Positions 14,761-40,522 of a stretch of DNA of 64,000 bases are shown piece by piece. The stretch lies in the sequence record NC_022968.1. One strand, given 5' to 3'. Made by a program: the position numbers and the translations under genes. Position 1 is the stretch's first letter. Each line of letters starts with the position of its first letter. The notes beneath the pieces are model-generated. The model did no database searches. It saw only the letters and a program-made list of their open reading frames with translations, and had not been told where the DNA came from. The stretch comes from Escherichia phage 4MG.

Positions 14761-14834
14761 TTTCGCTCCTGTTGGATTGCTCTTCTATTAATCAATATCT
14801 TATCATAAAAGATTCTATTTGTCATTAAAAAGAC

Positions 14835-14862
14835 TTGACAAGGCGTTATCACATGGTATATT
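14835..14862 (+). promoter_or_regulatory. sigma70-like promoter (TTGACA, 16 nt spacer, TATATT)
   Basis: -35 at 14835..14840, -10 at 14857..14862, upstream of RBS TAGGAGAA and ATG 14895. Confidence 0.5.
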
Positions 14863-14894
14863 AACCTTAATTAACGAACATAGGAGAACATTTT

Positions 14895-15299
14895 ATGAAG
14901 AATACTAAGGGAATTGTTTCACTGGCTGTCGGTGCTGTTGTTGCGGCTTTGGTGACGACCACCTACATCATGAAGCATCCAAATCTGGACAACATGCAAG
15001 CCATCGAATCAAGCTGGCTGTCGAAGGAAGAGAAAACAGCAAGTATCCATCGACTTGTGCGTTTGTCTTGCGACCAATCATTTCGTAAGGCATTTAAGCC
15101 TGGGGTGTCTGTAGTGCAGACAGGGGAGATGGATGAGATCACAGAGCAAGCAGAAGGCTATCAATATCTCAACGATGTGGCAATCCTCTATGGAACGAAA
15201 GGTTACAAAGGGGCATACATCTGCACATACTATAAAGATGGTAAAGAGCCTATGGTTAATGTGAATATGGAAGCGGGTGTTAAACCACTCCTAAAATAA
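14895..15299 (+). CDS. membrane-anchored protein (134 aa), plus-strand insert in minus-strand structural block
   Basis: ATG with strong RBS; N-terminal hydrophobic segment IVSLAVGAVVAALVTTTYIM; own promoter and flanking hairpin. Confidence 0.55.
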   Translation: MKNTKGIVSLAVGAVVAALVTTTYIMKHPNLDNMQAIESSWLSKEEKTASIHRLVRLSCDQSFRKAFKPGVSVVQTGEMDEITEQAEGYQYLNDVAILYGTKGYKGAYICTYYKDGKEPMVNVNMEAGVKPLLK

Positions 15300-16315: not shown

Positions 16316-18941
16316 AGTTGACAGTAAGAGAGGTTGTACCTGTCAGGTTTGTACCATCCCAAAGGATCGTAACAACTGTGCGGGTAGTTCCCAAAGTAAC
16401 CGCCGTACCGTTTGACCATGCTAAGTTTCCAGGCCACGTCAGTGACGCACCAGAACCTGTGAACACGATAACGATTGTCATTGCCCTGTTTGCAGGCAAA
16501 TTAGTAAAGCTCATGGTTTTGTTCGCTGTACCATCAACCTTGAAGACCTGAGACACGCTAACATCCATAGCTCCAGTTGAAGAAGTTACCAGAAGGTCGT
16601 AACGATCCAGTTTCTTCCATGCACTGTTTACACGAACGTAATAGCCGCTGTCAGCAGGGGCTTCAAGAACTGGCACATCTACCCAACCAGAACTTGTACG
16701 CGCCTGTGGCGTTGTTGAGGAGGTATCGTAGACGTTACCACCACCCATGTATCCCAGAGAAGCCCATACCGTAGCAGAAGTCTTCTGGAAATACTCAAGG
16801 GTGCTTTTGTTGATGAAGTAGTCACCAACACGTCCATCAGCAGGCCCTGGGTTACGTGGGAAGTTCAACCAAAGCGTACCTTGGTCACCTTTCACACCCT
16901 GGATACCCTGAGTACCTTGTGGACCCTGAGGTCCAGTTGGTCCAGCAGGCCCCGTAGGTCCTACGAATCCACCAACGTTGATCCAGTCATTGTCTGTTAC
17001 ACTCCAAACCCACAGGTCTGTTCCGATGATCCAGCCGTCACCTTCAGTACCTGTTGCTGGTAGATCAGCTTCAGATGCTTTGGTTCCTAGAGGTTTAATA
17101 CCAGCGCCCTGGTCTCCTTTAGGTCCTTGTGGGCCTGTTGGTCCGGTAGGACCTGCATCACCCTTCGGACCCTGTGGTCCATCAACACCTTGGAGTCCTT
17201 GGATACCCTGGTCTCCCTGAGGTCCTCGCATTACACCCAAGTTGGCCCAGTCAGAACCTGTAAAGGCAAAGCCCTCCCCGGTATCTACTGTGGTGTAATA
17301 ATCCCCATGAGATGCCCCAACCGGAAGGTCTGCTTCTGTTGGTACTGTTCCAAGAGGGTTAAGCGGAACACCCATTGGACCCTCAGGCCCTTGAGCACCA
17401 TCAGCACCAGCAGGCCCTGTATCTCCGGTGTCACCTTTAGGACCCTGAGGTCCATCAACACCTTGTGGACCCTGTGGGCCTGTAGGCCCGGTATCACCAG
17501 TGTCACCTTTATCGCCCTTCGGACCTACATATGGACCAACGTTGATCCACTGTGCATCAGATTGACTCCAGACATACAGGTTTGGTACAATGATCCAAGC
17601 ATCACCAGATGTTCCTGTCGCAGGAAGTTCAGATGTGGCACCTTTCGTACCGAGAACGCGAGCACTGTAACCTGTTTCACCACGGTCGCCCTTCGGACCT
17701 ACTGGTCCTTGAGGTCCAACTGGTCCGGTAAGGCCCGTGTCGCCCTTATCTCCTTTCGGACCTACGGGTCCCTGGATACCCTGTGCGCCGTCATTTCCCT
17801 GAGGACCCTGAGGTCCTGTTGGTCCGGTTGGACCTTGATCGCCTTTCTGTCCCTGTGGACCCTGAGGACCAACGTCACCATCGTCGCCTTTTGGCCCCTG
17901 AACAGGACCGATATCTTCCCATGCACCGTCAGAAGTCCACACCCAAACATGATTATCTGTTTGAACAACCCAAGCATCAGCAACGGCGTTGCCGAAAGCA
18001 GGAAGATCTGCGGTGGTGGCTTTTGTACCTTTCAGTTTAACAATGGCGGCATCGTTACCTTTATCGCCCTTCGGACCCTGAGGTCCTTGTGCGCCAGTAA
18101 GCCCTTGGATACCTTGAACACCCTGATCGCCTTTCTCACCACGATCACCTTTGTCACCTTTAGGTCCTTGTGGCCCTGTGGCACCAGTCGCACCCTGAGG
18201 CCCTGTTGGACCTACCTGACCAACTGGTTGCCAACCGTCAGCAGCGCCAGTCCATACCCACATCTGTTCTTGGACGATATAAGTATCACCCTCAGTGTTT
18301 CCTTCTGTAGGCAGGAATGCTGTGTCTGTGAAAGAGCCTTTGATTACAAGACCGATACCGTCCTGCCCTTGTGGACCTGCGAAGTCTCCAAGGTCAACCC
18401 ATTGCTGGTTTACAACAGTCCAGTAGTGTGTTCCAATAACGTATGTGTCGCCTTCCTGCATGGTTGATGCAGGTGGGAGTTGGGAAGGGTCTCCCAGAAT
18501 ACCTTGGATGTAAATACCAACACCCGGTTCACCTTGCGGCCCCTGGTCACCCTTATCCCCCTTTTCACCAGGTGGGACATACAGCCCCTCTTCACCTGGA
18601 TCAGTAACCTCAACAAGGGTGTTTCCATCCTTACTTGAGATCGGAATAACGATTTGAGGAGGAGCAACATACAGCTTTCCACCCGCCAATACAAGCAGGT
18701 TGTCACTGATTGTGCTGACACCAACGGAAAGACCGTCAGCACCAGCCACAAGAGCATTTCCGGAAGCAGGATCTACAATAACAGTTGCCTTCAGTGGGGT
18801 AGTGGATGTACCATTACCGAGAAGTGTGACGGTGGTCGTATCTTCCGTATGGAATTGACCATCATCAACAAAGGTCTCACCTGCACCGCCCTCAGGAAGG
18901 ATCAGTTCAGCGTTGACGACCTTATCATTGTAATCTGCCAT
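16314..18941 (-). CDS. collagen-like tail fiber protein (875 aa)
   Basis: multiple Gly-X-Y runs ([42 protein letters not shown]) separated by non-collagen segments. Confidence 0.65.
16840..18580 (-). repeat. in-frame collagen-like GGN-CCN nucleotide repeats
   Basis: reiterated ggtcc/ggacc motifs encoding G-X-Y triplets. Confidence 0.6.
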
Positions 18942-28257: not shown

Positions 28258-28266
28258 ATTGTTTGG

Positions 28267-28339
28267 TGGGACCGGGTGGACTCGAACCACCGACCATCTG
28301 CTCTTCAGGCAGGCACTCTACCAACTGAGTTACAATCCC
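28267..28339 (-). tRNA. tRNA-Phe (GAA)
   Basis: T-arm GGTGG/TTCGAGT/CCACC, anticodon loop CTGAAGA, A73, CCA encoded. Confidence 0.75.
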
Positions 28340-28349
28340 ATAAGATTGG

Positions 28350-28420
28350 TACTTCCTGGTAGAATCGAACTACCGCAACTGCCGTGTAAAGACAGGGTTC
28401 TACCATTAAACTAAGGAAGC
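28350..28420 (-). tRNA. tRNA-Val (TAC)
   Basis: T-loop TTCGATT, anticodon loop TTTACAC, CCA encoded. Confidence 0.7.
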
Positions 28421-28430
28421 ATTAAGGTGG

Positions 28431-28504
28431 TGGGCGACAGGGGACTCGAACCCCCAAAATTCGGAATCTAAATCCGACACGTATACCAATTCCATCAATC
28501 GCCC
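28431..28504 (-). tRNA. tRNA with Leu-type anticodon TAG but short (5 nt) variable arm
   Basis: 74 nt cloverleaf, anticodon stem TCGGA/TCCGA, loop TTTAGAT, A73, CCA encoded. Confidence 0.55.
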
Positions 28505-28616
28505 ATAAATGTTTGGAAGCCCATACTGTCTTCCTGATCAGCCAGAATCCTTTTCTAGCATTATCATCGGCCCTGTAGATCCTATCATTAGCCAGGGGAT
28601 CGACGCCTTAATTTGG

Positions 28617-28689
28617 TGGAGCCACTGAGAATCGAACTCAGTTCTACAAGGTGCAAGCCTGTGATTTTATCCAAATAAACTACAGCCCC
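28617..28689 (-). tRNA. tRNA-Ala (TGC)
   Basis: anticodon loop CTTGCAC; G3:U70 pair present; CCA encoded. Confidence 0.75.
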
Positions 28690-28696
28690 ATGTTGG

Positions 28697-28769
28697 TGCA
28701 AGTACAGGGATTCGAACCCCGATTCTCAGCTTCGTAAACTGATGCTCTGTCCAGTTGAACTATACCTGC
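28697..28769 (-). tRNA. tRNA-Arg (ACG)
   Basis: T-loop TTCGAAT, anticodon loop TTACGAA, CCA encoded. Confidence 0.7.
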
Positions 28770-28778
28770 TAAAATTGG

Positions 28779-28853
28779 TCGGAGCGGCAGGATTCGAACC
28801 TGCGACCCAGTGCATCCAAGGCACCCACGCTGACCAGACTGCGCTACGCTCCG
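28779..28853 (-). tRNA. tRNA-Pro (TGG)
   Basis: T-arm GCAGG/TTCGAAT/CCTGC, anticodon loop CTTGGAT, perfect acceptor pairing, CCA encoded. Confidence 0.75.
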
Positions 28854-29040
28854 AAGGTGCAGAATTTTAATTATCCCAGATACTGCAACTGGTATCGCTG
28901 GCTAGCTAATTTGATCCGCTCTGGTCACCTCGTGTGACATTGCAGACAGGCTAACCTATTCTGCAAGAGCGTATTGGGTTTGATACGTCGAACTCATTTT
29001 GAGTGCCTTCCGGCAATTTACATCAACATATCAAATTTGG

Positions 29041-29111
29041 CGGGAACTTCCTGACTCGAACAGGAGACAACCGCAGCACAAGCGGCCATTATGCCCCTTA
29101 ACTAAATTCCC
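29041..29111 (-). tRNA. tRNA with anticodon GTG (His-type) but G73 and C37, atypical
   Basis: T-arm TCCTG/actcgaa/CAGGA on plus strand, anticodon loop TTGTGCT, CCA encoded. Confidence 0.45.
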
Positions 29112-29118
29112 AATTTGG

Positions 29119-36144: not shown

Positions 36145-37827
36145 TTACAGTTGAGCGGCTGCTCGTTCACGAATCGTTGTCAGGTCTTCATCGACAATCA
36201 GTTTGCCGTTGTAGAACACACGACGCAGTTCGTTATCGTCAGACTGTACATCTTCAAGCTGACAATTGTCAATCAGTTCTAGCTGACCAAACATATTGCG
36301 AACAACCTTCAGGAAACCTTTTGCAGACTTCTTACCGAGGTCAGTCTTAGGTTCTTTGACAACCATGATCTGCTGACCATCAATAACCGCACCAGTTGCC
36401 TTCACAGCCATACCCAGTGAATCGCGGGTTGTGTACTGGGTAGTAAAGGAACCAACACCGTACACGATATTGCTGGATGCAAAGCCTTTATCTTTCAGAC
36501 GTTCAAAGATGTCTTTTGCACGAGCAACAGTGATAGAGTCACCGTAGATCAGGCCAACATGACTATCCAGAACTTTGTAACCCTTGGAGTTAACTTCACC
36601 ACCAAAGATTTCCCACAGACACTGGATTGCACCTTTGACTTCATGGTCTTGCAGATCGGAAGGCTCAAGATCAAGGTAATCCGTATCTTCATCGAATTCG
36701 ATGTTGTAATACTTACCTTTGACTGATACAACTTCACCTTTCTCGCTTTCCCATGCTGCGTCTTTGGCTTCAGACAGCGTTTCGAAATCACCAATATAAC
36801 GATACCCCGCAATGATATGTTCCGGAATGCCTGAATCAGGACGGAACACAACACGACCGTCACGAGCCATGATTTCTTCTTTCAGAATCAGTGCTGCACG
36901 GGTAATAATCGCCCAGAAGTCATAGCTGTCTGCTACGTAGGAAACAAAACCTTTCGGGAAAATTTCCGTGATGTAGCGTTTCAGGAATTCAACTTCAGCC
37001 AGGAAACGCAGTTCATCCAGGGACAAATCAGGATTTTCAGTTTTCAGGCGACCGACGATAAAGCCAATGTTAGTTGTTGCAACACTGTGTTCTGATGCAG
37101 GAATAGAACCAGCAACGAACTTACCTTTCATGTTGTAATAACGGTTCGCATACAGAATCGCAGGAATGGTATCTGTACCCATTGAGTTGATCAGTTGACC
37201 AAACTCACTCTGTGCCGCGTCGTGAGTACCAGATTCACCGCGATAAGCGAAGCAGTGGTTCTGGAACGGAACATGCAGGTTGTTATCACAAGTTTCGGCA
37301 GCGTATGCTTCAGACAGTTTGCGATACTGCCAGAAGGTAGTTGCAGTTGTGATGGTTTTCCATGTCTCTGCGGAGATCACGCTTTCCAGGAAGTTCGGCA
37401 ACCAGTAAAAATCAGGGTGCGTGTTCTGAATGGTGAACAGCGGAACCTGTACCGGGGACAGAGTGCCTTCAGGAATCGAACGGATTTCCAGTGGCAGGTA
37501 ACCAAGGTCATGCAGCTTTTCAAAGCCCCAGGTTTCAACCATGTCCGGGCCGATGCTCAGTTCACAAATTTCTTTGTACTGTGCGATAGCCGCTTTCTTT
37601 TTCATTTTGAAAAAGTTTTCGTTGAACAGGTCGATCAGGAACCATTTGATGAAACCTTGCAAGCCAGCCATCATCACACGCTGATCGTTATCAGCGAAGT
37701 GAATGAAGTGCTTTGCATTGCGTGGTGTCATGTTGTCCTGAACAATTTCAGAACGTCGGTCATACATGGAGATGTGTGAAGGTTTGTAAAAGTCAGCGAA
37801 TACGAGTGGGCTTTCTTTATGCAGCAT
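36145..37827 (-). CDS. nicotinamide phosphoribosyltransferase family protein (560 aa)
   Basis: NAMPT-like sequence features across ORF by recall; adjacent to PRS-like gene. Confidence 0.7.
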   Translation of the reverse strand: MLHKESPLVFADFYKPSHISMYDRRSEIVQDNMTPRNAKHFIHFADNDQRVMMAGLQGFIKWFLIDLFNENFFKMKKKAAIAQYKEICELSIGPDMVETWGFEKLHDLGYLPLEIRSIPEGTLSPVQVPLFTIQNTHPDFYWLPNFLESVISAETWKTITTATTFWQYRKLSEAYAAETCDNNLHVPFQNHCFAYRGESGTHDAAQSEFGQLINSMGTDTIPAILYANRYYNMKGKFVAGSIPASEHSVATTNIGFIVGRLKTENPDLSLDELRFLAEVEFLKRYITEIFPKGFVSYVADSYDFWAIITRAALILKEEIMARDGRVVFRPDSGIPEHIIAGYRYIGDFETLSEAKDAAWESEKGEVVSVKGKYYNIEFDEDTDYLDLEPSDLQDHEVKGAIQCLWEIFGGEVNSKGYKVLDSHVGLIYGDSITVARAKDIFERLKDKGFASSNIVYGVGSFTTQYTTRDSLGMAVKATGAVIDGQQIMVVKEPKTDLGKKSAKGFLKVVRNMFGQLELIDNCQLEDVQSDDNELRRVFYNGKLIVDEDLTTIRERAAAQL

Positions 37828-37880
37828 GTTTTGTTTCTCCTTTGTGTGTTTTGATGGGGTGATTCTACACCCCGTTTCGT

Positions 37881-38414
37881 TTAGATGTCAAGTGAAAAAT
37901 CTAAAGATTTAGATTCTTCTGTTACAACCGTTGTTTCTTTAACCAGACGACAGCCTTTCACCTTGATTTCTTTGGCTGGTGACCACTTAGTCGCACGGAT
38001 ATAGAATGTGTTTGCACGAATAACCATGAACCGGGCTACATCTTCAGGTGGTTCCTCGTTAATAAAAATCGCAACACTTTCGTATGCAGGCCACTTCATA
38101 GGGTTTTCATCGGTAACATCGGAATGTATACCATTACCGTTGTTAGTGCGACCCGGTGTAGGCCAGATAGTACAAGGTCGATAGCAGGCGTGGTCATCAG
38201 GAACCTGAATAACGTGATTTTCTAACCACGAGCAAATTTTTTCCAGGTCAAAATCATAATGGTCTTCTTTCAGGTCTTCAATATCTGTACGATATTCAGC
38301 CCCAACACCACACTCACCGATTTGCCCGGTAATATGAGCGCACATGTCACGCTCAAAGTTTCCTGCGTATGAGTCAGTATCGACAACAAAAATAAAACGA
38401 GTTGATTCAGTCAT
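37881..38414 (-). CDS. hypothetical protein (177 aa) between NAMPT-like and PRS-like genes
   Basis: ORF track; Cys/His-containing, no family recognised. Confidence 0.45.
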   Translation of the reverse strand: MTESTRFIFVVDTDSYAGNFERDMCAHITGQIGECGVGAEYRTDIEDLKEDHYDFDLEKICSWLENHVIQVPDDHACYRPCTIWPTPGRTNNGNGIHSDVTDENPMKWPAYESVAIFINEEPPEDVARFMVIRANTFYIRATKWSPAKEIKVKGCRLVKETTVVTEESKSLDFSLDI

Positions 38415-39214
38415 TAAAAATTCTCCGTCCAGTCATGGTATGCGTAGATTTCATCAACCCCGCCATCGAGGATGATTTGTTTCCCGAATGAGAAAATGCC
38501 GTGCGTAACGTAAAGGATAACACGTTTTGCACCATTCTCTTTCAGGGCTTTAGCCAGGGCGATGAAGGTACGACCACCATCACAGATATCATCGACGACA
38601 ACGCATTCGCGTCCTTCAACATCACCAAAGATTGCTGTCCCCGTAATTTCGTTTGTTTTCAGGTCACGAACCTTACCAGCTTCAACCAGAGGGAGTCGCA
38701 TACGGTCGGCAACCTTCTGTGCCTTCTTGCGAGCGCCTGCGTCTGGTGCAACAATGGTCACATCTTTCCCGGCAAGTTGATCATGGAATTCTGCAACAAG
38801 AATCTCTTGTCCACGAATCTGAACATTGTCCAGCAGTGCAGCAGAAACATCACTGTGTGGGTCATCAACAATCACTTTGTCGAAGCCAAGCGAGTTGACG
38901 AGGTTTGCAAAAACCTTGATAGATAGTGACTGTCCAGGTTGCATCACGCGATCCTGACGGGCATACGGGATGTATGGCAGGTGCAGGGTAAACTCAGCAT
39001 GGTTATGCAGCCCTTCAAGACGGGAACATGCATCCACCAACATAGCTAATGCCATGACATCGGTGGAGTTTTTGATTTTTGCAGTGATATCGACGAAACC
39101 AATACCGCCTTTTGGGGCATGTTTCAGATCAATCTCAACCTGTTCCTCACCACCCTTGAAGGTGAAGTGGTTAACAGGCACTTCCAGTTTGTTCAAGCGT
39201 AATTCAATACTCAT
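38414..39214 (-). CDS. ribose-phosphate pyrophosphokinase family protein (266 aa)
   Basis: PRPP-binding motif CVVVDDICDGGRT; shorter than typical bacterial Prs. Confidence 0.7.
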   Translation of the reverse strand: MSIELRLNKLEVPVNHFTFKGGEEQVEIDLKHAPKGGIGFVDITAKIKNSTDVMALAMLVDACSRLEGLHNHAEFTLHLPYIPYARQDRVMQPGQSLSIKVFANLVNSLGFDKVIVDDPHSDVSAALLDNVQIRGQEILVAEFHDQLAGKDVTIVAPDAGARKKAQKVADRMRLPLVEAGKVRDLKTNEITGTAIFGDVEGRECVVVDDICDGGRTFIALAKALKENGAKRVILYVTHGIFSFGKQIILDGGVDEIYAYHDWTENF

Positions 39215-39215
39215 T

Positions 39216-39533
39216 TTATTTCTCCTCTATCCAATCGTGAATTTCGTAAACCGTTTTGTTGTGGCCCATATTGGTGCGTGTTGTATCCTTTGTCAACCAT
39301 TTTATTTTCTCAAGGTTACCCACACACCGGGCAACAGTCGCCCTCGATAATCCTGTGGCATCAGCGATACTATCAAGTGACTCATGGTAAGTTTTCCGGA
39401 GAGACTTGAAGTAATGATACTGATGACGCATGTAGAGGTACACAATCTTGTCGTTGGACGAGGCGCAGGTCACCGACAGCAACTTCAGTTCGAAGTTACC
39501 GTAGATGTGCTTACCTGACGCGATGTACCCCAT
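39216..39533 (-). CDS. helix-turn-helix DNA-binding regulator (105 aa)
   Basis: HTH segment LDSIADATGLSRATVARCVGNLEKIKWL; first minus-strand gene next to divergent control region. Confidence 0.5.
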   Translation of the reverse strand: MGYIASGKHIYGNFELKLLSVTCASSNDKIVYLYMRHQYHYFKSLRKTYHESLDSIADATGLSRATVARCVGNLEKIKWLTKDTTRTNMGHNKTVYEIHDWIEEK

Positions 39534-39539
39534 GTCTCT

Positions 39540-39805
39540 CCTCCATAGCCTATACTCAAATTGACACTAAGCCTAGTCTCAAATTGATAACAGAAATAAA
39601 TACTATATAAAATAAATAAAACAATACTCTTTTAAAAAACAATAAAACATAAGATCTAAAAACAAGATCTTTTAGTATGATCTATATATTCTACTATCAA
39701 AGAGTCGCTGACTCGATGGAACGCAGTATGAATGAACAAAAATGTGCTGTCAAGTGGTTGACTTGAGATTTTGTTCATGTAGAATGCTCGTATTGTTAAA
39801 GGAGA
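39540..39805. promoter_or_regulatory. AT-rich divergent control region with direct repeats and palindromes
   Basis: direct repeat CTCAAATTGA(C/T)A twice, two AAGATCT palindromes, sigma70-like promoter at 39758..39785. Confidence 0.5.
39758..39785 (+). promoter_or_regulatory. sigma70-like early promoter (TTGACT, 16 nt spacer, TAGAAT)
   Basis: -35 39758..39763, -10 39780..39785, upstream of RBS AAAGGAGA and ATG 39812. Confidence 0.55.
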
Positions 39806-39811
39806 TTGTTA

Positions 39812-40135
39812 ATGTTGTCAAGTAAACAAACAAAAGATATTGGTGATATGGTATGTGGAAAACCTCGTCGTAAACCTGAACAGACTGACGAGGAGAAGTC
39901 AAGACTTATGTTAATTCGTGATGTTTTTCATGAAACAATGAAAGAACAAAATGTGTGTGTTGTGTTACCAGATGGTAAGTCCGAGCAGGAAGTGTTCGGA
40001 GATTACCTCACGTCATTGCGTGGTCGATTAAGACGTAGAAATGTGACTGTGGTGTGGTATAAAGACTTGACAGTGGAACACATCGAGAGTAATAATTGTG
40101 TGGTGGATCTCAGTGAGATTCGTATAACGCTCTAG
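39812..40135 (+). CDS. hypothetical early protein (107 aa)
   Basis: ATG 39812 after strong RBS. Confidence 0.45.
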   Translation: MLSSKQTKDIGDMVCGKPRRKPEQTDEEKSRLMLIRDVFHETMKEQNVCVVLPDGKSEQEVFGDYLTSLRGRLRRRNVTVVWYKDLTVEHIESNNCVVDLSEIRITL

Positions 40136-40252
40136 GAAGCGTTGTAAGACGTTTTTATTGTGTGGTAGTACACTTGGGTTACCAACACCTGTTTAATTCA
40201 ATACAGGGCCGCTCAGAGGCTCTGAGGGCTATTGTGGAGGGTTAATTTGGAT

Positions 40253-40522
40253 ATGAAAAGCATTAGCAGTGAAAACTCCATCTACAAAGATGCGTATGAC
40301 GCTTTGGTGGGGTTCATGAAAGCTGCTGAGAAGCGGTATGGTGTGAAACTATACCTTGACAGCAAGGTTGACTGGGGTAAGACATGGATGGACTCCAGTG
40401 TGTACATTCATGGTGATCGCCATGTGGTTAATTTGGTGTGCATGAAACTGATTGTGTGGCAACACCAACAGAAGATTCTGGACGGTATTCTGTACGCTTA
40501 CCCGGCATCGGAGATGAAATGA
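40253..40522 (+). CDS. hypothetical protein (89 aa)
   Basis: ORF track 40232..40522; ATG 40253 after GGAGGG. Confidence 0.4.
   Translation: MKSISSENSIYKDAYDALVGFMKAAEKRYGVKLYLDSKVDWGKTWMDSSVYIHGDRHVVNLVCMKLIVWQHQQKILDGILYAYPASEMK

Follow-up and report, generated by a model that had tools for sequence, protein, structure and literature searches.

We analysed a window of 64,000 nt from Escherichia phage 4MG (NC_022968.1) and, within it, the intergenic region from 39534 to 39811, the sole divergence point of the window. This region is 278 bp long, rather than the 270 bp given in an initial annotation of the same DNA, which had correctly recognized the gap and had proposed that it may serve as an early/late switch or as a replication origin. 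Leftward genes run from 39533 down to 341, starting with a gene for a winged helix-turn-helix (wHTH) protein, followed by those for phosphoribosyl pyrophosphate (PRPP) synthetase and NadV, 25 tRNAs and then the structural genes. Rightward genes begin at 39812, and the first of them (39812 to 40135, plus strand; 107 amino acids, phrog_4868) is preceded by the Shine-Dalgarno sequence AGGAG at 39800 to 39804. Between the two gene blocks lie tandem repeats, an AT-rich tract with AGATCT hexamers and back-to-back promoters.

Over 2.6 kb around the region, the closest relative is Cronobacter phage GAP31 (86% identity); Klebsiella, Proteus, Salmonella and other Cronobacter phages (Vequintavirinae; Seunavirus, Mydovirus) are 78 to 80% identical. 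Judged by these similarities, the phage is Seunavirus-like (Vequintavirinae), a large lytic enterobacterial phage. The loci of Aeromonas phage 4L372D and Salmonella phage 19 were left out of the comparison because of excessive distance or poor assembly. In its intergenic DNA the phage shares 96.4% identity with GAP31, and in the wHTH gene 95%, against 80 to 86% for the genes flanking the block, and alignments of the region reveal a 39-bp core unchanged across two genera; conservation of the region is therefore far beyond chance. The whole block of 93 to 96% identity to GAP31 extends over about 1 kb (39216 to 40252: the wHTH gene, the intergenic region, the first rightward gene and the next gap), and might reflect either a recent recombinational exchange or stronger constraint.

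Tandem repeats, AT-rich tract and promoters

Two copies of a short repeat had been reported in this region, about 22 bp apart. Both are present, CTCAAATTGACA at 39555 to 39566 and CTCAAATTGATA at 39578 to 39589, with a start-to-start distance of 23 bp, and this 12-mer has only these two matches in the 64 kb even when one mismatch is allowed. The true repeat unit is longer than first seen, comprising 18 nt (AGCCTAnnCTCAAATTGA, which is AGCCTA(TA/GT)CTCAAATTGA) with a 23-bp period. Copy 1 (AGCCTATACTCAAATTGA, 39547 to 39564) and copy 2 (AGCCTAGTCTCAAATTGA, 39570 to 39587) are identical at 16 of 18 positions. When the 278-bp region was shuffled 2000 times with its dinucleotides preserved, an equally good direct repeat with a period of 10 to 40 bp arose just twice. 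The repeat core, TCAAATTGA (39556 to 39564 in copy 1), is a 9-bp palindrome that a window-wide search found at the two repeats only. Both copies are intergenic, with every candidate leftward promoter on one side of them and the start codon of the wHTH gene on the other, and copy 2 overlaps the hexamer TTGATA at 39584 to 39589. The repeats are kept at a 23-bp period in phages GAP31, EC152, LNA4, EspYZU15, KE22 and BIS47 and in Erwinia phage pEp_SNUABM_01. Together with the AT-rich centre and both AGATCT hexamers, they are nearly invariant across seven phages of what we call type A. The type-A repeats read CTCAAWTTGA (the window, GAP31, BIS47 and the Erwinia phage).

Beyond the repeats lies a tract of 85% A+T (39594 to 39693), which is a candidate DNA-unwinding element (DUE). 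It is the least stable 100-mer of the window: its nearest-neighbour dG is -101.4 kcal/mol, about 6 standard deviations from the 64-kb mean (-137.0, standard deviation 5.8), and that of the runner-up is -112.7. In the GAP31 genome (reassembled, 147,940 bp), the homologous 100-mer at 79455 to 79554 ranks first in instability, and one at 17126 to 17225, which belongs to a second module described below, ranks second. The block AAAACAATAAAACATAAGATCTA..AAGATCTTT is identical across type-A phages and the type-B phages, which carry other repeats. The window's second most AT-rich and second least stable stretch, at 14772 to 14900, is also a divergent gap, a small one; it contains a promoter-like site (TTGACA...TATATT) but neither AGATCT nor tandem repeats.

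Two AAGATCT palindromes had also been noted here. The copies exist, at 39651 and 39664, but the palindrome is AGATCT rather than AAGATCT. The two hexamers, both within the AT tract, occupy 39652 to 39657 and, 13 bp further on, 39665 to 39670. A third GATCT follows at 39679 to 39683, in an element (39679 to 39694) that continues with TATATATTCTAC, and the three thus stand at exact 13-bp intervals. The minus strand of 39693 to 39688 reads TAGAAT, a conserved -10-like hexamer; in BIS47 and KB57 this TAGAAT is conserved and the third GATC is not. In dinucleotide shuffles of the tract, 0.09 AGATCT were expected against the 2 observed (P 0.002), with P values of 0.06 for the AT tract of the second GAP31 module and 0.04 for that of phage rV5. 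These two hexamers are the window's only AGATCT sites in a context of at least 70% A+T, and just 3 of the 67 AGATCT sites of GAP31 have such a context, all three inside its two modules. The hosts of these phages are Enterobacteriaceae, and in the DUE of E. coli oriC, AGATCT is an atypical 6-mer DnaA box, the single-stranded form of which is bound by ATP-DnaA (review, PMC4285127). Scans of 39500 to 39830 for the consensus sequences of the DnaA 9-mer, integration host factor (IHF) and Fis gave nothing convincing.

An oriC-like 13-mer register is real in the window, yet its spacing varies among relatives, and we therefore did not use it as evidence. We likewise rejected AAGATCT as a general phage promoter motif, as nearly all window copies are in coding DNA and an AT-rich context is seen only at the module copies. 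Window-wide, AAGATCT has 24 copies against 10.9 +/- 3.9 expected from shuffles, and five of these form the full palindrome AAGATCTT. Phage rV5 has, beside its own repeats, a motif resembling 39679 to 39694 (local alignment TAGGATCTAGTATATTCTAC; the observed score was reached in 0 of 300 shuffles). Common descent of the rV5 and window AT tracts is not claimed, because the above-shuffle alignment is limited to a 19-nt motif (GATCTA(g)TATATTCTAC), which is too little.

The sigma-70-like promoter of the initial annotation is present on the plus strand at 39758 to 39785 (TTGACT at 39758 to 39763, a 16-nt spacer, TAGAAT at 39780 to 39785) and is the region's best sigma-70-like match. Back to back with it stands a leftward promoter on the minus strand at 39725 to 39753 (TTGACA at 39753 to 39748, a 17-nt spacer, CATACT at 39730 to 39725). 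The rightward promoter is conserved as TTGAC(T/A)-16-TA(G/C)AAT in BIS47, KB57, PVP-SE1, FENT2 and the Erwinia phage, and the leftward CATACT is replaced in BIS47 and KB57 by GATAAT, a still good -10. Since the two back-to-back promoters are conserved, the region is, as judged from its sequence, a genuine divergent promoter region, and the proposal of a divergent control region was borne out. The rV5 genome paper had expected bidirectional promoters at the equivalent junction, and its stringent scan returned none (PMC3606486). A further, weak rightward promoter, TTGATA-18-TAAAAT, is predicted at 39584 to 39613 on the plus strand, with its -35 hexamer in copy 2 of the repeat. The sequence also contains a palindrome, GAGTC-GCT-GACTC (39702 to 39714), which is kept in outline as GAGTCGnTGACTC in the type-A and type-B alignments.

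The divergent promoters mirror each other (39723 to 39741 against 39769 to 39787; 19-nt arms, 79% complementary), and the corresponding arms in PVP-SE1, ATGAACAAAA/TTTTGTTCAT, are perfect. This symmetry suggests a symmetric regulator site or a duplicated promoter. A direct repeat, TG(C/T)TGTCAAGT, occurs at 39745 to 39755, across the back-to-back -35 hexamers, and 68 bp away at 39813 to 39823, from the ATG of the first rightward gene; the PVP-SE1 pair is 69 bp apart.

The winged-helix protein and its co-variation with the repeats

As had been stated, the adjacent minus-strand gene encodes a helix-turn-helix protein. The gene spans 39216 to 39533 (ATG at 39533; Shine-Dalgarno sequence GGAGG at 39544 to 39540), and its 105-amino-acid product, a candidate origin-binding protein or regulator, has the confidently predicted structure of a single winged helix (pLDDT 80.7). 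The protein ends after the helix-turn-helix part, without the effector or dimerisation domain of the IclR, MarR and GntR families. In sequence searches it aligned with the N-terminal third of phrog_8102 ('replication initiation protein', 6e-37) and, weakly, with lambda-O-like and other initiator PHROGs. The Pfam scan gave generic wHTH matches only (HTH_IclR at residues 52 to 83, 23.9 bits against a cut-off of 22; Phage_rep_O below threshold) and no match to Rep_3. Nine close relatives were all that a word-indexed protein search found. An exhaustive profile search returned 197, mostly of 95 to 190 amino acids and mostly without context; the longer ones bear DUF6945, HTH_36, DnaD_N, RepL or Phage_rep_O domains. 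Scanning with the family profile identified one member in the window and two in GAP31. The named neighbours among predicted viral structures are replication proteins (lambda GpO-N, replisome organiser, replication initiator), and a sequence search of the PDB yielded marginal matches only (best 4ro3, E 0.007). As the fold and sequence neighbours are mostly replication proteins, the predicted fold leans towards the DNA-binding domains of initiators (lambda O N-terminal, DnaD-N, RepA_N), and would be compatible with a regulator as well.

In all the relatives examined, a change of protein allele comes with a change of repeat sequence, giving eight allele/repeat pairs with a period of 21 to 24 bp throughout. 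In the type-B phages PVP-SE1, KB57 and FENT2, homology to the window does not begin until 39589 or 39632. In place of the wHTH gene they carry a different small winged-helix gene (phrog_8453, 118 to 123 amino acids), the product of which has weak matches to DnaD-like loader and initiator PHROGs, and the repeats are two copies of CTAATTATTCCCAAnnGGGAAT with a 24-bp period. The right two-thirds of the region is unchanged. A strong promoter, TTGACA-17-TAnnnT, abuts the type-B repeats, and between the -10 of this promoter and the gene there is a third copy, weak and inverted. In Erwinia phage pEp_SNUABM_01, the protein is 68% identical to that of the window and two copies of CTCAAATTGA are retained at 23 bp. 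A metagenomic relative (61% identity) has the recognition helix ARSTLKRS, against SRATVARC in the window, and two copies of CCAAGGTTCATTTTGGACCTA at 23 bp. This co-variation of gene and site is strong indirect evidence that the repeats are binding sites of the protein; that they are cognate to the product of the adjacent gene is almost certain. Beside the type-B cassette is a gene for a 186- to 189-amino-acid protein (PVP-SE1 gp97; FENT2) that has a wHTH at its N terminus and, at its C terminus, an endonuclease-type domain of the T5orf172/MUG113 (GIY-YIG-like) kind (phrog_25806, phrog_681); from its domains, it may be a homing-type nuclease able to mobilise the cassette.

The same arrangement recurs elsewhere. 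The rV5 protein gp075 (116 amino acids, annotated 'replication initiation protein'; 35% identical to the window protein over 48 amino acids) is encoded inside a leftward operon, 1.1 kb from the divergent junction. Directly 3' of its gene are four palindromic copies of GTGTCCGTATCACGGACAGTTA at 21 to 22 bp, followed by an AT-rich tract with AGATCT, and the least stable 100-mer of this 7-kb locus is the iteron tract, not the divergent promoter gap. No iteron copy was found at the annotated promoter P76 upstream of gp075. In GAP31, a second module (within 16780 to 17230 of NC_019400) starts with GAP31_035, a protein of 98 amino acids that is 35% identical to the window protein and also annotated 'replication initiation protein'. 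After its stop codon come two copies of TGACAAAAACG at a 23-bp distance; an AT-rich stretch of about 65 bp separates them from AAGATCT and a TTGATCT-16-TATAGT promoter. At least four protein alleles exist at this second locus among the relatives, each with its own repeats of about 23 bp (CCCCGGACAnnGnTGA in KB57, ATGCAAAWTTTGCA in PVP-SE1 and BIS47, TTTTGACAAATTTGTC in Hena1), then an AT tract with one to three AGATCT; the repeats are about 100 bp upstream of the next -35.

The module thus consists of a small wHTH gene and two to four tandem palindromic repeats; its small proteins are all homologous to one another, and a family cassette occupies the position of the window module in every relative examined. 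The order is constant (repeats, then 40 to 70 bp of 82 to 90% A+T, then AGATCT), whereas the position of the repeats relative to the gene varies, 5' in the window and 3' in rV5 and GAP31_035.

A possible replication origin or site of regulation

The repeats, the weakest DNA and AGATCT stay constant while the relation to the gene and to the promoters varies. This favours an origin unit of iterons plus DUE, and the constancy of the module, as read from the sequences, is hard to reconcile with a simple operator. Our preferred reading, held with moderate confidence, is that the region is an iteron-type replication-origin module embedded in, or overlapped by, divergent sigma-70 promoters. Of the two functions first proposed, a replication origin is thus the better supported, though not proven, given iteron-like sites, the least stable DNA, an initiator-related protein and a module that lies away from divergent promoters in rV5 and at the second GAP31 locus. 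What the analysis shows is the anatomy, its conservation, the co-variation of allele and repeat, a duplex of extreme instability, and the protein's homology and fold; DNA binding, unwinding, origin firing and any role of DnaA are what we infer.

On this model: the winged-helix protein would bind as dimers to the two palindrome-containing repeats (39547 to 39587); the resulting nucleoprotein complex, at the edge of the genome's most easily melted DNA (39594 to 39693), would help to open the tract, and transcription running into it from the flanking promoters might assist, as might host ATP-DnaA bound to the AGATCT hexamers; and the phage's own primase-helicase and polymerase would then load. 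Plasmid initiators autoregulate their own transcription unit. Binding to the repeats would probably also autoregulate the unit of the wHTH protein, a likely additional role of the same sites.

The main rival reading, serious but possible rather than probable, is that the repeats are a local operator of transcription only. The protein would then repress or tune its own leftward unit (wHTH, PRPP synthetase, NadV, tRNAs), the weak rightward promoter with its -35 in copy 2, or both, and the AT tract would merely be promoter-associated curved or UP-element DNA; such a function can coexist with an origin. The location of the repeats in the window, downstream of every candidate leftward promoter, and the promoter abutting the type-B repeats both fit plain autoregulation, as do the TTGATA in copy 2 and the weak inverted third copy in type B. 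The HTH_IclR match just over its cut-off and the name transcriptional regulator, which several GenBank records give to the protein, also speak for an operator. Against it, rV5 and the second module of GAP31, PVP-SE1, KB57 and Hena1 have their repeats 3' of the gene, where the distance to the next -35 is too great for occlusion or class I/II activation, and P76 of rV5 has no iteron copy. Plain autoregulation also leaves unexplained why, in a genome of 148 kb, both of the least stable 100-mers adjoin such repeats, and why the unstable tract of rV5 accompanies the iterons and not the divergent promoters.

Transposon-insertion sequencing (Tn-seq) of the rV5-like phage Bas54 bears on this question. 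The gp075 homologue, bas54_0212, was hit at 17 of 20 TA sites, with mean reads of 13.6 against 135 to 400 in its neighbours, and the small downstream open reading frame bas54_0213 at 4 of 7 sites, with a mean count of 18.1; both were classed as 'Intermediate' (bioRxiv 10.1101/2025.11.20.689424). Insertion reads in the two are thus about 10-fold below those in neighbouring genes, whereas loss of a pure autorepressor should be cost-free. From its position, bas54_0213 would overlie the iterons. These data therefore suggest that protein and site are jointly beneficial but dispensable, which fits a phage with several initiation routes and also a useful regulator.

Several observations weigh against an origin. 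The region has two repeats, and classic origins have four or more. No DnaA 9-mer cluster was found in 39200 to 40100 and no IHF consensus in 39500 to 39830, and the 13-bp GATCT spacing is not conserved, with the third GATC missing in BIS47 and KB57, one AGATCT in Erwinia phages and other spacings in the second-locus modules. The 105-amino-acid protein is a DNA-binding domain only, with no C-terminal part to recruit a helicase or loader. The position of the window repeats between the upstream promoters and the start codon, and the proximity of the type-B repeats to a strong promoter, are what autoregulation alone would predict. The Bas54 homologue is not essential, and Bas54 has, between convergent genes, a different region of about 2 kb (2.5 kb if measured by the supplementary coordinates, 92785 to 95298) that is devoid of genes and took no transposon insertions (HIDEN-SEQ; bioRxiv 10.1101/2025.11.20.689424); this region could be the main cis-essential element and lies outside the window. 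The full-genome GC skew of GAP31 flips at 13.7 and 79.5 kb, with changes of gene orientation, and not at the second module at 17.1 kb. Finally, our literature search found no experimental origin activity for any Vequintavirinae phage. The GAP31 equivalent of the gene-free Bas54 region, a convergent junction at 31790 to 32660, carries several direct repeats and an inverted repeat (GCGACACAATAACACGGGG) with perfect 19-nt arms separated by 173 nt.

GC skew, which the initial annotation had suggested as a check, proved uninformative. The cumulative skew minimum of the window falls at the studied region, but skew follows transcription and gene orientation and so cannot decide the matter; we rejected it as an origin marker, in agreement with the rV5 genome paper, in which skew analysis failed to define an origin (PMC3606486).

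It is improbable that the wHTH gene and its repeats are a selfish or accessory cassette, mobile and swappable (for example homing-associated, or related to superinfection exclusion or incompatibility), with sites that serve the cassette and not phage replication or transcription. The cassette is indeed swapped between otherwise collinear phages with sharp boundaries, the wHTH-T5orf172/GIY-YIG-like nuclease gene stands beside the type-B version, and 39216 to 40252 is closer to GAP31 than are its flanks. However, every relative examined has a family member at this position, and another at a second locus that is likewise fixed. The AT/AGATCT part shared by these phages is strongly conserved, and disruption is costly in Bas54. 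Swapping of origin and initiator specificity alleles is, in any case, well known in lambdoid phages.

A genome-wide early/late switch, in which the protein would control many promoters through such sites, is highly improbable: the region does stand at the start of two large opposed gene blocks, but the 12-mer (one mismatch allowed) and the 9-bp palindrome are confined to the two repeats in 64 kb and CTCAAWTTGA has no match in a scan of GAP31 1 to 50,000, so that there is no sign of a regulon and the switch first proposed is not supported. Metabolic and tRNA genes separate the region from the structural genes, which share their strand and lie at distances of up to 39 kb, and sister phages have replaced the cassette by an allele of unrelated specificity with the rest of the region unaltered.

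Our broadest conjecture, which is speculative and rather doubtful, is that Vequintavirinae replicate from two private origins (rV5-like phages from at least one), each with a winged-helix binder of about 100 amino acids, a swappable iteron pair or quartet and a DUE with host-type AGATCT boxes for ATP-DnaA. Such origins would combine lambda-like specificity cassettes with a hijack of host DnaA, and both gene blocks would run co-directionally away from them.

The replication origins of the rV5-like phages (Vequintavirinae) are undefined, although this large group, which infects E. coli, Salmonella, Klebsiella and Cronobacter, includes candidates for phage therapy. With a recognisable module, origin candidates open to direct testing could be named in over 100 sequenced phages, and the label 'replication initiation protein' that homology-based pipelines already give to the small proteins would be explained. 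Nature would also have supplied a set of orthogonal protein/site pairs, with at least eight specificities on one scaffold. If merely an autoregulatory operator, it would be an ordinary feature. Literature searches for iterons, origin mapping and transcriptomics in Vequintavirinae returned nothing relevant, and no description of these DNA elements, or of any origin in this subfamily, was found.

Some neighbouring features were recorded as well. Directly downstream of the wHTH gene, 36145 to 39214 encodes the NAD+ salvage enzymes nicotinamide phosphoribosyltransferase (560 amino acids) and ribose-phosphate pyrophosphokinase (266 amino acids), and such genes are typical of this phage group. Further downstream in the leftward unit, the 25 tRNA genes are clustered at 28264 to 34878 on the minus strand, one with an odd 2-nt anticodon call. 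An Rfam scan of 39300 to 40300 gave no match.

Comparison with known systems

Like lambda ori and its O protein, the module combines a winged-helix domain, here a candidate origin binder, with tandem, dyad-symmetric iterons spaced about two helical turns, beside an AT-rich unwinding region; such DNA flanks the iterons in the window, in GAP31, in rV5 and in the second-locus modules. The iteron sequence co-varies with protein specificity between related phages (eight pairs, the sites being predicted), nearby transcription could activate the origin, and the fold and profile neighbours of the module protein include proteins of the lambda GpO N-terminal domain type. Unlike O, the module protein has about 100 amino acids (105 in the window, as a single winged-helix domain), corresponding to the N-terminal DNA-binding part without the C-terminal domain that recruits a P-like loader, and its Phage_rep_O match is below threshold. 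The lambda iterons are inside the initiator gene, whereas those of the module are outside it, intergenic in the window. There are two copies in the window and four in rV5, and two modules per genome, each with its own paralogue.

Initiators of the DnaD and RepA_N kinds (N-domains of the Firmicute primosome proteins DnaD/DnaB; RepA_N of staphylococcal multiresistance plasmids, PDB 4pta) differ in that the module protein has no detectable sequence membership in these families and no second domain. RepA_N iterons lie within the rep gene, and the phages carrying the module infect Enterobacteriaceae. With small wHTH autorepressors (N-domains of MarR, IclR and GntR), the module shares a small winged helix, palindromic sites by its own gene and the marginal HTH_IclR match. 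It differs from them in lacking an effector or dimerisation domain and, in the sister modules, in having sites 3' of the gene, far from promoters.

The AT tract resembles the DUE of E. coli oriC as a thermodynamically weakest, AT-rich tract with AGATCT, which in the window comes with three GATCT at 13-bp spacing. No 9-mer DnaA boxes adjoin it, and both AGATCT number and 13-bp spacing vary in relatives; a role for DnaA would be pure inference. Iteron plasmids and P1 oriR offer another parallel: the rep gene adjoins the iterons, these adjoin an AT-rich tract with GATC, and the initiator sites could also repress their own gene. Plasmid Rep proteins, in contrast, have two winged-helix domains (Rep_3), and act with 4 to 7 iterons and host DnaA boxes, none of which the window module has: its protein is of one domain, there are two repeats, and 39200 to 40100 contains no DnaA-box cluster. 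The module, which would work like lambda ori/O and like iteron replicons, departs from both in these defining features. We would class it as a variant form of iteron origin, set apart by its minimal binder, by having between two and four iterons, by the presence of two private modules in each genome, and by specificity alleles that can be swapped.

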